Origin: a phage
Direction: 5' to 3' (one strand)
DNA: 64,000 nucleotides
Assembly: GCA_012411765.1 (NCBI GenBank)
Contig: GCA_012411765.1_3031.1
This document shows positions 21,915-60,980 of the stretch, in pieces; the first letter of the stretch is position 1; each line of letters starts with the position of its first letter. The notes below the pieces were generated by a model that saw only the letters and a list, made by a program, of their open reading frames with translations, was not told where the DNA came from and did not search any database. Position numbers and translations under genes: made by a program.

Positions 21915-23254
<1,340 letters not shown>

Positions 23255-23353: not shown

Positions 23354-23554
23354 ATGGTACAAAAATTAATGGCACTTGTTAATGCCATCAAAGGTAATAA
23401 AAAGCGTATAGCTTTTACTATTTCTGCTATGGTAGGAATTTTACTCTGGAACTTTATTTTATCACCTGTTGCAATTGCGCATGGTATTAATATTCCAGTA
23501 GTTACTCTTGATACATTCGTAGATTTAGCATTTGCTTTAGTTGGGTTAATTTAA
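23354..23554 (+). CDS. small membrane protein (66 aa), plus strand
   Basis: Strong RBS AAAGGAGGA upstream of ATG; two hydrophobic segments; stop overlaps gene 61 stop (convergent). Confidence 0.4.
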   Translation: MVQKLMALVNAIKGNKKRIAFTISAMVGILLWNFILSPVAIAHGINIPVVTLDTFVDLAFALVGLI

Positions 23555-24579
23555 ATCTTAGCATATTTAGATAGCCGCATTTTAGCCATCAACCCCTGGG
23601 CAATATTATTTTTCATATATTCCATAATTTGTTCAGGGGTTGCACCTTCCTTTCTAATCATATCATTAACATCTTTTGATTTCCAGGGAGATTTATCCCA
23701 AAACATAACCCTTTCTCCTGCATCAACTAATTTAGTCATTCGCTTAATAGTGTCAGGATGACGAGGTTCATTATCTAAAACCCACACGCGTCTATCTTTA
23801 AATGGAACAACTTCTAGGTCTAATTGACCACCTGTAATAGCTATACCATTTTCAATAAAAAGTGAATCTATAGGTCCTTCTAGAACATATACATCACCAT
23901 CTTTAACTCGTTCGACTCCATAGATTTTTGTTGCCTCAGGATAAGCTTTGATGGTGATATATTTTTGAGGAGCATCTTTCTTTAATGCACGTCCTTGAAA
24001 AGACTCAGCTTTTCCATTAGCATTATAAATTGGAATAACAAGACGAGGCTCAGGTATTTCCTTTTTATATGTTCCCGGTGCTATGCTATTAACTAATTTA
24101 GGCCATTCGGTTGTAAACCAAAGATATTTCCATTTATCCTTTGGAATACAACGAGCTTTTACATATTTTATAATTGGATGGTCTTCCGTCAGTTTATCTA
24201 ATCTAACACATGACGGAAGAGATTTAATTATTTTCTTCTCAGGTTGTTTAGGAAGTTCTTTAGGTTTTTCTACTGGACGACTTTTACCTTTTTCTTTTCT
24301 TATTTCAAAGATATACTCACGATATAAATCAGGTTCAAACTCCTTTAAATATATTCCGATTGGTGCATGATAGTTACAGTTATAACAATGAATATTTCCT
24401 TCATTATTATCACCATAATACCATCCACGGGCTTTATTCTGGTCGGTTTTTGAATCTCCACAAACAGGGCATCTAAACCGTAATTTAAAAGTTGAACTAT
24501 TATTTACTTGTGTGAATTTAGGTAAATGAGCCAATGCACGATACGCAAACTCATTATCAATCCAAGGTATTGATGACAT
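23551..24579 (-). CDS. 61: DNA primase
   Basis: 342 aa; N-terminal zinc ribbon CPVCGDS...CYNC; synteny with 41. Confidence 0.9.
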   Translation of the reverse strand: MSSIPWIDNEFAYRALAHLPKFTQVNNSSTFKLRFRCPVCGDSKTDQNKARGWYYGDNNEGNIHCYNCNYHAPIGIYLKEFEPDLYREYIFEIRKEKGKSRPVEKPKELPKQPEKKIIKSLPSCVRLDKLTEDHPIIKYVKARCIPKDKWKYLWFTTEWPKLVNSIAPGTYKKEIPEPRLVIPIYNANGKAESFQGRALKKDAPQKYITIKAYPEATKIYGVERVKDGDVYVLEGPIDSLFIENGIAITGGQLDLEVVPFKDRRVWVLDNEPRHPDTIKRMTKLVDAGERVMFWDKSPWKSKDVNDMIRKEGATPEQIMEYMKNNIAQGLMAKMRLSKYAKI

Positions 24580-24747
24580 TTTTACTCTTCTTTTTCTTTA
24601 GATTCCTCTTTTTTCTTTTTAGGAATCTGTTCAGGACCTTTATTTACTACAGCGCCTGACGTTGTTCCAGTAGAGATATTTTCAGGATTACCACCTGAAT
24701 CTCCAGCGACCATATCTTCTTTGATAAATTCTTTATATGTTTTCATA

Positions 24748-25104
24748 TTAACCTCTATTCATAAAAGCATTAAAAATTTGGTCATCAATCGATGGAATAG
24801 CAACTTTTTCTGCATCATTTAGCAAATCATTAATTTCATCAGATAGCATAACACATGTACCTTTATTTCCTGTAATTGTTACTGCGCAATTACGAACGTT
24901 TTCTTTATTAAATTTTAGGTTAATATTTTCGTAATGAAAATCCTTTAATGCTGAATATATTTTTAAAATAAAATTGTCTTTTACTGCAATAAACCCAACC
25001 TCACTATTAAAACGTGGTTCATGGAAACTGTAATAAACCTTTTCATCTATAAAATCGTATGAAATTTTTTCCATTTTTAAATATGAAAATTCAGAACTAT
25101 GCAT
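24748..25104 (-). CDS. hypothetical protein (118 aa), 61.1/61.2 position
   Basis: ORF between primase and sp. Confidence 0.45.
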   Translation of the reverse strand: MHSSEFSYLKMEKISYDFIDEKVYYSFHEPRFNSEVGFIAVKDNFILKIYSALKDFHYENINLKFNKENVRNCAVTITGNKGTCVMLSDEINDLLNDAEKVAIPSIDDQIFNAFMNRG

Positions 25105-25116
25105 ACTAACCTCTAA

Positions 25117-25410
25117 TTACTCACCTACCACTTCAGCGATGATATTTTTATTATTAAAGTTTTTATCGCAATATAGAACATAATTATACTGCATTACACC
25201 ACCAGACTTAAGCTGTTTTTGCACTTCGGCTTTCATTTCAGGACGATCGCGCTCAACGATATTCATAATATCTGCTTCAATTTGGGTTTCAACCTCAGTC
25301 TGATCAGCAGTCATAGACCATTCGCACAAATCTTTATCATAACCTGCCATAGCAGGCTGAGCAGCACAAGAAGCTAAAGCAAAAATTGTAGCAAAGATAA
25401 ATTTTTTCAT
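25117..25410 (-). CDS. sp: Spackle-like periplasmic protein
   Basis: 97 aa with N-terminal signal peptide; position between 61 and 41. Confidence 0.65.
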   Translation of the reverse strand: MKKFIFATIFALASCAAQPAMAGYDKDLCEWSMTADQTEVETQIEADIMNIVERDRPEMKAEVQKQLKSGGVMQYNYVLYCDKNFNNKNIIAEVVGE

Positions 25411-25470
25411 GATAATCTCCTCAGTAGTTTATGTTTATATAGTATCTCAATTTCCAATAAAAGTAAACAG

Positions 25471-25728
25471 TTATTTTAAAACTTCTGCATAATCACATGT
25501 TACAAACTGGTTCTCTAACTTGACGATTTTACGAAAGTATCTTTTGCATTGGCGAATCTGCCGCTTCGTAGGGCGAACAGCAAACTTAATAAATTCCACT
25601 CGACCAAATGGAGGACTTTCTTCTGCTGGAATATCTAACACCAATTCCCACGTATCTGCAATAAGTGCTTTGAATTGCGTATTTTTCCTGACGCTATACG
25701 GAGTAGGTTTAAATAAAACAATATGCAT
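25471..25728 (-). CDS. hypothetical protein (85 aa from internal Met), 61.4 position
   Basis: Track ORF 25471..25782 overlaps dmd; internal start MHIVLFKPTPYS avoids overlap. Confidence 0.4.
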   Translation of the reverse strand: MHIVLFKPTPYSVRKNTQFKALIADTWELVLDIPAEESPPFGRVEFIKFAVRPTKRQIRQCKRYFRKIVKLENQFVTCDYAEVLK

Positions 25729-25729
25729 A

Positions 25730-25912
25730 TTATCCTCGGCAATCCACTTCACATACTTTCTTGTCATCAATGAAAGCTTCAACTAATGCTTTATTAACTT
25801 CAGCATATTGAGTAGTAGCCCATTGAACGTCATCTTTCATCATTGTGATTTCTTTAGTAAACATACTTTCGTTCTTAAACCACCCCATAAAAACTACTTT
25901 TACCAATTCCAT
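25730..25912 (-). CDS. dmd: Dmd-like antitoxin (inhibitor of RnlA/LsoA)
   Basis: 60 aa, MELVKVVFMGWFKNES...; size and position match recalled T4 dmd (61.5). Confidence 0.6.
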   Translation of the reverse strand: MELVKVVFMGWFKNESMFTKEITMMKDDVQWATTQYAEVNKALVEAFIDDKKVCEVDCRG

Positions 25913-25970
25913 AACAATCTCCTCATTTAACCAACAAGACTACTATACCATAGTCTTGTCAGCTTGTAAA

Positions 25971-27398
25971 CTAAAATTTTAATTCATTTGCCAAAGCATC
26001 TAACTGAGCTCGAGTGGATTCATTTCTTTGATAGCGATTCTGCTCAGCTTGTATCTGTTGTGAACCTGCTACCTCACTCACTTCAGTTGGAGTAGAATCT
26101 TGTTCAATTTCTACCCATTTCTGATTTCCTTTTTGAACACCCATCAAAAACTTATTCCATTTATTCTTATCACCATATCGTGATTTGATTTGCTTAATGA
26201 GTTGTTGTTCAGCAGCTGCTAGCTCCTCGGTTTCAATGACCGCAAGCATAAAATCGGCTGTTGCTGGAAGACCAGCAGATTCTGCAATATCGCTCATGTT
26301 AACATCGGAAGAATCCCAAGCTTGCTTACCAACCTGTGCTGCAGTCCAAAGAACAGTTTCGGTTTCAACAGCCAGAGCACGCAATTCCTCTGCGATAGCT
26401 TTAACAGTTGTGTAACTATTTTCTGAATAAACTCTAATGCGGCAAGATTTACAAATACCTAGATAGTCGACAATAATGATTGTTGGAACAAAATTCTTTT
26501 TGAGCTTCAATTCATTCAAGAGAGACCTGAATGTATTAGCATCTGCTCCACCAGTAGGATACTGTTTAACGATTAAACGTCCAAGAGTAGATTTCTCACG
26601 CCATTTTTCCATTTTTCCTTTATACTCAGCGTAAGAAATATGCCCATCATCAATATCATCAAGAGAAACATCAAGCATATTAGCATCAATACGTTTAGCG
26701 CAGACTTCTTCTGCCATTTCCATGGAAATGTAAAGAACATTATGTCCGAGCTGTAAATAATCTGCTGCCAATGAACACAGACCTAATGACTTACCAACGT
26801 TAACGCCAGCCATTAAAACGTTCAGTGTTCCAGTCTCAGCTCCGCCTTTAGTAATTTTGTTTAGAATTCTGAGTTTAAATGGAACCTTACGAGCTTTATT
26901 CATATAAGATAGCCAACGTGCTTCATAGTCATCCATCCAATCATGACCAACGTAACTATCAAATGAAATTGATAATGCCTGCCGCATGATGTCAGGAATA
27001 GCACCAACATCCGGCATTTTCTTATTTCGTTTTTCCGGAGGAAGCTCAGCATTAGTTTGAATTTCGATTATTTTAGACGTAGCATTAAACATCGCCCTTT
27101 GCTGAACATATTTTTCTGTTTCTTTTATTAACCAGCTGTGGTCTTCCGGAGAATCAGCCAGTTTTGAAATAAGTGTTTTTACACCAGAATATTCTGTTTC
27201 AGTAAATGAACTATTTTCTAATGCAACATTTAACGCATTAATAGATGGAACGCTATGATACTCATTGACATGAGATTTAATTAATTTGAATGTATTTTTA
27301 GCTGGACCACTTTCAAAATATTCTGAATCCATATATGGCCAAACTTTTGAAAAATAAGCTTGATCAAATATGAGATGAGAAAGAATAATTTCTACCAC
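25971..27398 (-). CDS. 41: replicative DNA helicase (DnaB-like)
   Basis: 475 aa; Walker A GVNVGKS; synteny. Confidence 0.95.
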   Translation of the reverse strand: MVEIILSHLIFDQAYFSKVWPYMDSEYFESGPAKNTFKLIKSHVNEYHSVPSINALNVALENSSFTETEYSGVKTLISKLADSPEDHSWLIKETEKYVQQRAMFNATSKIIEIQTNAELPPEKRNKKMPDVGAIPDIMRQALSISFDSYVGHDWMDDYEARWLSYMNKARKVPFKLRILNKITKGGAETGTLNVLMAGVNVGKSLGLCSLAADYLQLGHNVLYISMEMAEEVCAKRIDANMLDVSLDDIDDGHISYAEYKGKMEKWREKSTLGRLIVKQYPTGGADANTFRSLLNELKLKKNFVPTIIIVDYLGICKSCRIRVYSENSYTTVKAIAEELRALAVETETVLWTAAQVGKQAWDSSDVNMSDIAESAGLPATADFMLAVIETEELAAAEQQLIKQIKSRYGDKNKWNKFLMGVQKGNQKWVEIEQDSTPTEVSEVAGSQQIQAEQNRYQRNESTRAQLDALANELKF

Positions 27399-60434: not shown

Positions 60435-60980
60435 TCACTTTGAAATCATAGTTGGAATAACAGAATCAAGATAAGTCTTTAATGCAATAGCTTCGTCTTT
60501 GGTAAATGTGACAATATGCGCTCGAAAATCATCAATTTGACGAATAGTTAAGACATCTCCATCTTCATAACATTTTGATACGTTTAAAGCAGTTTCATCA
60601 TTCTGATCGCAAGCGTTAGTAATAATAGCATTGCAATTTTTAAGCCATTTTAAACTATGTTTTCTTTCATTAGAATAATAAAAATATTTAATCTTAGTTA
60701 TAAAATTATCCCAATTATTAATTGATAAGCATATTGACTCGCTTTCAATGTTAAATCCTGGGCATAAAGAATAAAAATGAATTTTATGCTCATCATTAAT
60801 GCTTACAATTTTATCAGTATAAGAATTTTCAATTTGGGTTAAATGAATAATTTCATTAGGAGTAAAATATAGCATATCGTCTTCTTGTGTCAAACGATAC
60901 ATATTATTTACTTTTTCTATAGCCAATTCACCAAAAAGTGAACTAACTTCTAATACTAATCGTTTCGCCTCGCTCATCAT
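60435..60980 (-). CDS. hypothetical protein (181 aa), paralog
   Basis: See previous. Confidence 0.45.
   Translation of the reverse strand: MMSEAKRLVLEVSSLFGELAIEKVNNMYRLTQEDDMLYFTPNEIIHLTQIENSYTDKIVSINDEHKIHFYSLCPGFNIESESICLSINNWDNFITKIKYFYYSNERKHSLKWLKNCNAIITNACDQNDETALNVSKCYEDGDVLTIRQIDDFRAHIVTFTKDEAIALKTYLDSVIPTMISK

Follow-up and report, generated by a model that had tools for sequence, protein, structure and literature searches.

Introduction

The interval between the primase and helicase genes of T-even phages was named the "anti-TA island" by Srikant, Guegler & Laub in 2022, and its described contents are dmd, directed against RnlA, tifA (61.4), directed against ToxN, and adfA (61.2), directed against DarT1; other genes of the interval have already been put forward as anti-toxin candidates (PMC9391042). 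The dmd and tifA genes were described as an operon, with an early promoter upstream of dmd in T4, and inhibition of ToxN was shown for the TifA proteins of T2, T4 and T6 (PMC9391042). RNA binding by TifA needs a central cluster of basic residues (PMC10853763).

A bacterial two-hybrid assay showed association of AdfA (anti-DarT factor A) with DarT1, the strength of which depends on residue 164 (PMC11825919). T4 does not need its AdfA to resist DarTG1, and the protein is a weak DarT1 binder; in RB69, binding was observed for AdfA(R164H) but not for the wild-type protein (PMC11825919). Phage T2 deprived of adfN forms no plaques on DarTG1 cells (PMC11825919). The literature states that T2 "lacks an adfA homolog", and the published adfA search retained only BLAST matches covering more than 75% of the full length. 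Here, we describe this interval in a 64,000-nucleotide stretch of phage DNA (GCA_012411765.1, contig GCA_012411765.1_3031.1; hereafter, the window) and compare it with these systems.

Results

Gene content and order of the interval

The four minus-strand ORFs that an initial annotation had placed between the primase and helicase genes were all present at the positions given in Table 1, in a phage that we identify as a T2-like Tequatrovirus. The annotation had overlooked the fifth gene of the interval, 61.1. The region matches 510 phage records with a DNA identity of 90–99%; because of these matches, a dN/dS ratio of 0.27 and a confident AlphaFold model for the 118-aa ORF, the four ORFs are real genes, and chance ORFs are excluded. 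Seven proteins were compared with NCBIfam, and none had a model there.

Table 1. Annotated features of the primase–helicase interval, with position in the window, strand and basis or description
tifA (gene 61.4), 85 aa from ATG	25471..25728	-	Pfam DUF7279 (PF23945), 72.8 bits vs. threshold 24.5
dmd (gene 61.5), 60 aa	25730..25912	-	Pfam PF17587, 154 bits
Sigma-70-type early-promoter-like site	25942..25970	-	TTTACA, 17 nt spacer, TATAGT, extended TG; upstream of dmd
sp (Spackle, gene 61.3), 97 aa, signal peptide	25117..25410	-	Pfam PF25676, 151 bits
12-nt spacer TTAGAGGTTAGT	25105..25116	-	DNA comparison with JLBYU22 and T4
Short single-module AdfA-family gene (T2-type 61.2), 118 aa	24748..25104	-	Pfam AdfA PF23813
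49-nt 3' repeat	24744..24792	-	Encodes tail SIDDQIFNAFMNRG, stop codon and overlapping 61.1 start (TAATATG)
Gene 61.1, 54 aa	24582..24746	-	96% identical to T4 gp61.1

In T4, the interval comprises five slots, 61.1, 61.2, sp, 61.4 and dmd, and their order is identical in the window. Alignment to the T4 products, which had been suggested as a check, gave 96% identity for 61.1, 96% for 61.4 and 34% for 61.2, the latter over the C-terminal half. The claim that the ORF complement differs from that of T4 consequently applies to the 61.2 slot, the sole one unlike T4 (118 aa in the window vs. 208 aa in T4), and fails for the other four. The layout of the window is that of the classical phage T2.

The interval had been presented as a counter-defence islet holding two uncharacterized candidates. 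Its theme was well chosen, and DarTG, tied to the 61.2 family, was rightly named among the relevant defences; the inclusion of Spackle, which acts in superinfection exclusion, was mistaken, as was the view of the interval as unexplored (PMC9391042). A reading in which both the 85-aa and the 118-aa ORFs are novel counter-defence candidates within a gene complement unlike that of T4 gains from the enrichment of the region in anti-defence genes and from the label "hypothetical", which the 118-aa protein carries in all records listed. We nevertheless regard it as improbable: the 85-aa ORF is TifA, characterized in 2022–2024, with 96% identity to its tested T4 counterpart, so that the reading is already refuted for this ORF; the 118-aa ORF, taken for an orphan, matches the Pfam AdfA family above threshold; and the slot order and layout are those of T4 and of classical T2, respectively. 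In our assessment, the interval is very probably the conserved T-even anti-TA island, in which the 118-aa gene is an AdfA-family member with a putative DarT-type target and the layout arose by deletion.

Dmd, TifA and Spackle

The Dmd-like assignment proved correct: 59 of 60 residues (98%) are identical to T4 Dmd, and the protein matches PDB 5hy3, "Antitoxin Dmd" (E 7e-37). By homology, it is an antitoxin-like inhibitor predicted to bind and block the RNase toxins RnlA and LsoA. The promoter-like site upstream of dmd had the top score in the scan, with 10 of 12 matches, and its position agrees with that of the T4 early promoter (PMC9391042); it probably drives the dmd–tifA operon.

TifA matches T4 gp61.4 from end to end, with 82 of 85 residues identical, and it is almost the same as the T2 and T6 proteins that were tested. 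A TTG-extended reading of 103 aa is possible; we prefer the 85-aa start because its ATG lies 2 nt past the dmd stop (stop and start together reading TAATATG) and because of the end-to-end match with T4 gp61.4. From this similarity, the product is predicted to be an RNA-binding inhibitor of the ToxN endoribonuclease that traps ToxN on cellular RNA. A sequence search of solved structures gave no match for TifA.

Spackle acts in superinfection exclusion as an inhibitor of the tail lysozyme gp5. The Spackle-like protein of the initial annotation was confirmed as such, with 96 of 97 residues (99%) identical to T4 Sp and matches to PDB 6x6o and 7cn6. The 7cn6 chain corresponds to residues 23–97, the mature protein, which begins directly after AQPAMA. 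The window protein is likewise predicted to be exported to the periplasm and then to block the tail lysozyme of superinfecting phages.

Gene 61.1

Gene 61.1 is the sole gene of the interval that is genuinely uncharacterized, and its homologs occur in ~1400 phage records. Its product, which includes the peptide DMVAGDSGGNPENISTGTTSGAVVNK, combines a start resembling the capsid-targeting start of T4 internal proteins with a likeness to the cleavage region of gp23. The start, MKTYKEFIKE, is identical at 8 of 10 positions to that of IPII/IPIII (MKTYQEFIAE) and keeps all four key positions (Tyr/Phe4, Phe7, Ile8 and Glu10) of the rules for the capsid targeting sequence, or CTS (PMC9026906). A segment of gp61.1 is 43% identical to residues 57–93 of gp23. 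The literature search yielded no publication that connects 61.1 with the CTS.

The 118-aa protein is assigned to the AdfA family

The 118-aa protein scored 34.1 bits against PF23813 (gathering threshold 27; E 2.3e-8), the match covering profile positions 113–211 of 211 and hence only the C-terminal half, and its near homologs bear a precomputed PF23813.2 annotation. It is 34% identical to residues 109–208 of T4 gp61.2, and hhalign aligned it with the C-terminal half of the long form with a probability of 98.3% (E 1.8e-14). When the common tail was removed, the values were 60% and E 8.6e-5, indicating moderate homology of the body. By these sequence comparisons, we place the protein in the AdfA family.

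An exhaustive HMM search of 1.84 billion representatives recovered only short forms (118, 119 and 125 aa) and a 210-aa AdfA, and Foldseek matches among viral models were confined to proteins of T4-like phages (118, 157, 212 and 145 aa); the AdfA family profile had no sequence match among solved structures. Two further candidates were rejected: a 459-aa match in the exhaustive search (P0009) was a translated tandem repeat rather than a relative, and a tblastn match at 60528–60791 of the window (E 0.084) was judged to be due to chance.

The short gene is found in 334 phage records, and the T2 protein is 95% identical to that of the window. Against a 75%-identical homolog, the ORF shows a dN/dS of 0.27 at a dS of 0.51, and the gene is under purifying selection. 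Half the length of AdfA, the clear deletion scars in the 61.2 slot and the count of T2 among phages without adfA could suggest a decaying, functionless remnant of a rearrangement of the slot. This explanation is very unlikely and largely refuted by the selection values, by the ORF being intact in ~300 phage genomes, by short forms in distant genera at 40–47% identity (e.g., the 119-aa VR7 protein and a 125-aa form), by the intact long gene that stands in tandem with it in many phages, and by a confident fold prediction and a conserved GAGG ribosome-binding site.

Modules, specificity position and C-terminal tail

The AlphaFold model of the 118-aa protein (pLDDT 82.9) comprises a five-strand beta sheet (residues 8–64), a helix (67–78) that includes Asn72 and Cys73, and then a flexible, conserved C-terminal helix. 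In the long-form model, of modest confidence (pLDDT 70.9), the strand–helix pattern occurs twice, at residues 2–78 and 98–171. The comparison suggests that the short form consists of a single five-strand-plus-helix module, the C-terminal one of the two that T4 AdfA (208 aa) and RB69 AdfA would have. By sequence, the internal duplication of long AdfA is weakly supported (E 0.003–0.016); its main basis is the repeated secondary-structure pattern in a medium-confidence model.

The residue corresponding to position 164 of RB69 AdfA and His165 of T4, where DarT1 binding requires a His, is Asn72 according to MAFFT and hhalign, or Cys73 according to pairwise BLAST. This column holds His, Arg or Asn in long forms and Asn, His or Asp in short forms; the natural variant that is 75% identical to the 118-aa protein has His72.

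The protein retains the invariant C-terminal tail of the family, IDDQIFNAFMNRG; the tail pattern is [SI][IV]DDQIFNAFM[NK][RK][GD], and the 14-residue tail (sequence in Table 1) is identical in the window short form and T4 AdfA. In IMG/VR, all three body classes end with the same tail. It shows three synonymous and no non-synonymous changes, and synonymous changes that leave the amino acids unaltered in VR7 and L006 place the constraint at the protein level. A role of the tail as a nucleotide element, i.e., a ribosome-binding site or promoter for 61.1, was therefore rejected, only the final AGAGG fitting a ribosome-binding site. A sliding-clamp-binding motif was rejected as well, the resemblance to T4 polymerase C-termini being loose.

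Slot layouts and their origin

In phage JLBYU22, and in many other phages, the long and short genes stand in tandem. The two genes have in common the 49-nt repeat, which matches both 3' ends in JLBYU22 at 92–96% (blastn). Since both forms occur together in some phages, the short one is a paralogue of long AdfA and not an allele of it.

At the DNA level, the window and T4 both appear to derive from the tandem layout, each by a simple deletion. In the window, the long gene would have been lost precisely from a long-plus-short ancestor, which leaves the short-only layout; in T4, the 49-nt 3' repeats of the two genes would have recombined to give the long-only layout. Both steps are suggested by the DNA junctions. 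On the same comparison, the 12-nt spacer upstream of the short gene is identified as a leftover of the last ~10 nt (..AATAGAGGTTAAT) of the deleted long adfA, and it gives the short gene its GAGG ribosome-binding site.

Discussion

Target and function of the short form

Short forms in T2-like phages were overlooked because of the length filter of the published search. Since T2 ΔadfN is sensitive to DarTG1 while carrying a short gene whose product is 95% identical to that of the window, the short form appears ineffective on that DarT1 at native expression, and the E. coli DarT1 examined so far is probably not blocked by it. The AdfA family may have a main natural target other than DarT1, given that the long AdfA of T4 is dispensable and binds DarT1 weakly.

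Like AdfA, the short protein would bind a host toxin one-to-one and non-enzymatically, the likeliest target being a DarT-type DNA ADP-ribosyltransferase. The variable body, whose helix holds the specificity position (Asn72 in the window protein), would determine which target is bound. We tentatively propose, as a possibility, that the IDDQIFNAFMNRG-ending proteins are one modular inhibitor family with long (208–216 aa), medium (145–157 aa) and short (117–125 aa) classes, which T4-like phages mix, duplicate and delete via the 3' repeat, and that the short class neutralizes a host toxin that is not the E. coli DarT1 studied so far, such as another DarT allele or DarT2.

Alternatively, the native function of the whole tail-bearing family, the short form included, might not be DarT inhibition: the tail helix would engage some conserved partner from the host or the phage, the variable body would have a different task, and the binding of RB69 AdfA(R164H) to DarT1 would be a side activity. 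The dispensability of T4 AdfA, its weak binding to DarT1, the absence of binding by wild-type RB69 AdfA and the sensitivity of T2 ΔadfN speak in its favor, as do the invariance of the tail over three body classes that are otherwise only 17–45% identical and the low pLDDT of the tail (57–62), as expected of a flexible docking motif. On the other hand, no activity except DarT1 binding and neutralization is known from experiments on family members, the gene lies among three other single-protein inhibitors of toxins or lysozyme, and the long-form column that controls DarT1 binding is also variable in short forms, which fits a shared specificity surface. On balance, we consider this alternative rather doubtful.

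Implications for annotation

Since most of the finding has already been published, its chief value lies in correct annotation: hundreds of Tequatrovirus records that read "hypothetical protein" ought to carry the names TifA, Dmd, Spackle and AdfA-family instead. A modest new point is that the AdfA family has a wider range and a more modular make-up than published, and that phages said to be without adfA, T2 included, carry a single-module paralogue. If the short form does target a toxin other than DarT1, T2 would hold an unrecognized anti-toxin specificity. Should the short and medium classes have toxin specificities of their own, the known anti-DarT repertoire would be extended, host-range differences among therapeutic T4-like phages would be explained in part, and a natural system would be available for the study of how binding modules are re-targeted.

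Comparison with known systems

In its genes, their order and their proposed role, the interval of the window is like the anti-TA island of Srikant et al. (2022). Dmd differs by one substitution from T4 Dmd, whose structure is solved (5hy3). TifA, encoded directly downstream of dmd in the same operon in both phages, is a T4-type allele, with Phe41 as in T4 and an identical basic RNA-binding cluster (RPTKRQIRQCKRYFRK); none of its three substitutions (S12 for N, N73 for K and V83 for I) falls at a position reported to matter. Spackle also differs from its T4 counterpart by one substitution, and its role is superinfection exclusion, not counter-defence.

The short form occupies the same slot as AdfA in T4 and RB69, between sp and 61.1, and, like AdfA, it is without an enzymatic domain and without a relative among solved structures. 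In contrast to AdfA (208–216 aa), it lacks the N-terminal module, and at the key position it has neither the His of active AdfA nor the Arg of RB69. The T2-type layout of the window, with the short AdfA-family gene only, does not appear in the discussion of Srikant et al. (2022). While the island itself is already published, the new part is a half-size, single-module relative in the AdfA slot.

Gene content of the primase–helicase interval

The phage is a T2/T4-like Tequatrovirus. A DNA search with the 1.5-kb region matched 510 phage records at 90–99% identity, led by Shigella phage ESh17 (98.3%), with phage T2 at 97.5%. Five genes are tightly packed between primase and helicase, all on the minus strand, and are joined either by TAATATG overlaps or by GAGG ribosome-binding sites preceding the genes. 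Directly upstream of dmd lies the strongest promoter-like site of our scan (TTTACA, 17 nt, TATAGT, with an extended TG). The initial annotation had placed four of these ORFs with exact coordinates and lengths; gene 61.1 was absent from its list.

Features of the primase–helicase interval and its surroundings, with protein identity to the T4 counterpart
Feature	Coordinates	Strand	Product length	Identity to T4 protein
186-aa ORF	22694-23254	minus	186 aa	
66-aa ORF	23354-23554	plus	66 aa	
Primase gene 61	23551-24579	minus		
Gene 61.1	24582-24746	minus	54 aa	96%
Short AdfA-family gene (61.2)	24748-25104	minus	118 aa	34% (C-terminal half)
sp (61.3)	25117-25410	minus		99%
tifA (61.4)	25471-25728	minus	85 aa	96%
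dmd (61.5)	25730-25912	minus		98%
Promoter-like site	25970-25942			
Helicase gene 41	25971-27398	minus		

The table includes the alignment of the 61.1, 61.2 and 61.4 products with T4 that the initial annotation had proposed. Its suggestion of an ORF complement unlike that of T4 held for a single slot: 61.1, 61.2, sp, 61.4 and dmd follow one another in the same order in T4, in T2 and in the window, and only 61.2 differs, encoding 118 aa in the window and in T2 versus 208 aa in T4. The T2 gene (3249–3605 of L001, the T2 RefSeq record NC_054931) is given by RefSeq as 108 aa from a later, internal start; the whole 118-aa ORF is intact there, with its upstream ATG and GAGG site, and the RefSeq annotation is probably 10 codons too short.

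Two further ORFs lie outside the interval. The hydrophobic 66-aa ORF, a member of PHROG 2024 (function unknown), is on the opposite strand to every neighbour and shares 4 nt with the primase gene at the 3′ end of the latter; it is an annotated gene in phages JLBYU22 and VR7 (ORF033w). The 186-aa ORF, which lies just upstream of dam and overlaps it by 1 nt, occurs in T2 and 164 phage records, always as ‘hypothetical’, and T4 has no counterpart. It gave weak, sub-threshold Pfam matches to the DpnII (GATC) and BanI restriction endonucleases and contains a PD-(D/E)xK-like motif (FDIVIS...IIEIKHQ). Located beside the GATC methylase, it is a possible candidate nuclease.

TifA, Dmd and Spackle

The 85-aa ORF, initially regarded as uncharacterised, is TifA, as its identity to T4 gp61.4 indicates; the protein scored 72.8 bits against Pfam DUF7279 (threshold 24.5). 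T4 gene 61.4 was renamed tifA by Srikant, Guegler & Laub (eLife 2022, PMC9391042), who described an inhibitor of the type III toxIN toxin ToxN whose gene shares a two-gene operon with dmd. In T2, T4 and T6 the TifA proteins are near-identical, and all three inhibit ToxN (PMC9391042). TifA binds ToxN and RNA, trapping the toxin in a ribonucleoprotein complex, and its potency is tuned by residue 41 (Guegler et al., NAR 2024, PMC10853763). In the window protein the basic cluster RPTKRQIRQCKRYFRK is unaltered relative to T4, and residue 41 is Phe, i.e., the weaker T4-type allele. In L005, an otherwise T2-like IMG/VR contig, the TifA match ends at residue 76 of 85 and ~390 nt of unmatched DNA (1806–2195) lie between tifA and sp, which suggests an insertion altering the TifA C-terminus.

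Dmd and Spackle scored very highly against their own Pfam families and matched solved structures (5hy3 for Dmd; 6x6o and 7cn6 for Spackle). Spackle inhibits the gp5 tail lysozyme during superinfection, and its role is to exclude other phages rather than counter-defence. The counter-defence theme proposed for 24748–25912 is borne out for the interval. The dmd, tifA and adfA region has already been termed the “anti-TA island”, with the remaining genes there proposed as candidates (PMC9391042), so the central idea of the initial annotation was correct but published.

The 118-aa protein as a putative single-module AdfA variant

The 118-aa ORF, first taken to be uncharacterised, belongs to a known family as a putative single-module variant and is present in T2 and about 300 other genomes. 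Its product scored 34.1 bits against Pfam AdfA (PF23813; threshold 27), aligning to profile positions 113–211 of 211 only. AdfA is the product of T4 gene 61.2 (PMC9391042). The pairwise BLAST match to T4 gp61.2 is restricted to T4 residues 109–208, and the final 14 residues of the two proteins are identical. When 1.84 billion representative proteins were searched exhaustively with the profile, only four true relatives emerged (the 118-aa cluster, a 119-aa and a 125-aa protein, and the 210-aa AdfA); a fifth match was rejected as a repeat artefact. Aligned profile to profile, the short family and the C-terminal half of long AdfA matched with a probability of 98.3% (E 1.8e-14); removal of the shared 16-residue tail lowered this to only 60%, with E still at 8.6e-5.

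For the short form, AlphaFold predicts (pLDDT 82.9, pTM 0.72) five strands (residues 8–64), a helix (67–78), a short strand and a second helix (89–100), followed by a C-terminal helix of low confidence (106–115). In the model of a T4-like long form (pLDDT 70.9), the five-strand-plus-helix pattern appears twice (2–78 and 98–171), followed by the same terminal helix (196–205). From these models, we take the short protein to be one module, the counterpart of the C-terminal module of long AdfA, and the long protein to have arisen by tandem duplication of that module; at the sequence level, the duplication is weakly supported (E about 0.003–0.016).

With the R164H substitution, RB69 AdfA gains the ability to bind DarT1, a DNA ADP-ribosyltransferase, and to neutralise it; T4 AdfA has the His, yet binds weakly and is dispensable (PMC11825919). 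In our alignment, the RB69-type Arg is residue 168 (164 when numbered from the second Met) and occupies the position of T4 His165. Its short-form counterpart is Asn72 according to MAFFT and hhalign; pairwise BLAST, with the register shifted by one, gives Cys73, which is invariant. The residue-72 column contains Asn (window, T2), His (a 75%-identical variant) or Asp (VR7-type) in short forms and His, Asn or Arg in long forms, a variability consistent with a specificity surface common to both.

By tblastn, 334 phage records hold the short gene, T2, RB32, RB51 and PP01 included; identity reached 90% or more in about 293, and 82 of the 334 had two matching places. Compared with the 75%-identical homolog in the IMG/VR locus L006, dN/dS was 0.27 (dS 0.51), which marks it as a genuine gene under selection. 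In L006 and JLBYU22, a 210-aa long AdfA is directly followed by a 118/119-aa short gene, and because the two adjoin there, the short form is a paralogue able to coexist with AdfA, not merely an allele.

Probable role of the short form

The family relationship suggests, as the most likely mechanism, that the short protein binds a host toxin one-to-one; the variable body would determine specificity, and the target is most plausibly a DarT-type enzyme. Our literature search found no experiments on the short form. According to Johannesman et al., T2 “naturally lacks an adfA homolog”; their BLAST filter retained only matches covering >75% of full length, which is why the short form was overlooked. 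T2 without adfN forms no plaques on DarTG1 cells (PMC11825919), so the short protein at its native level probably does not neutralise that DarT1. The short form may be directed at a different DarT allele, at DarT2 or at some other target. Both T2 and T4 without adfN are still DarTG2-resistant (PMC11825919).

Gene 61.1

Gene 61.1 is the sole truly uncharacterised gene of the interval. Its product starts with MKTYKEFIKE, identical in 8 of 10 positions to the T4 IPII/IPIII capsid targeting sequence MKTYQEFIAE, and keeps the residues that the published rules assign to targeting (positions 4 and 7) and to processing (8 and 10) (PMC9026906). Residues 2–38 share 43% identity with gp23 residues 57–93. 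The gp21 protease cleaves gp23 within this segment, after Glu65, and the mature capsid protein begins there. About 1400 records of T4-like phages hold a homolog, Klebsiella, Acinetobacter and Aeromonas phages among them. The CC31 and Ac42 homologs measure ~150 aa, their C-terminal third representing the T4-type 61.1, and an [LI]xE motif directly ahead of (D/E)(M/V)VAGDSGG is kept in T4-type, CC31 and Ac42 proteins alike. Our literature search found no paper linking 61.1 to capsid targeting. The gp61.1 product may be a small peptide that is packaged and injected, or it may mimic the N-terminal arm of the capsid protein.

Layout of the 61.2 slot in T4-like phages

In DNA alignments, the window has the JLBYU22 layout without the long gene, and T4 has the same layout without the short gene. 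In the window, the sp stop is followed by a 12-nt spacer, TTAGAGGTTAGT, which represents the final ~10 nt of a gene of the long type (AATAGAGGTTAAT) and whose GAGG is the ribosome-binding site. The T4 junction falls within a 49-nt sequence common to the 3′ ends of long and short genes, which codes for the tail SIDDQIFNAFMNRG and the TAATATG junction to 61.1. Protein-level selection maintains the tail, which in VR7 and L006 has synonymous differences and zero amino-acid changes. Scanning IMG/VR with a degenerate DNA pattern for DDQIFNAFM yielded 16 loci, all of them large T4-like contigs where size allows judging (mostly 115–172 kb). The tail is attached to long (208–216 aa), medium (145–157 aa, the VR7 ORF039c type) or short (117–119 aa) bodies. 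The 61.2 slot is a site of modular, recombining cassettes.

In the Gaprivervirus VR7 (L004, 222–3442), the same interval is expanded by several extra small ORFs and contains a pair of TifA-like genes (98 and 73 aa) that share the RPTKRQIR motif. VR7 also has a medium (145 aa) and a short (119 aa) AdfA-tail gene in tandem. As the VR7 interval illustrates, the anti-TA island is a hot spot of paralogue turnover.
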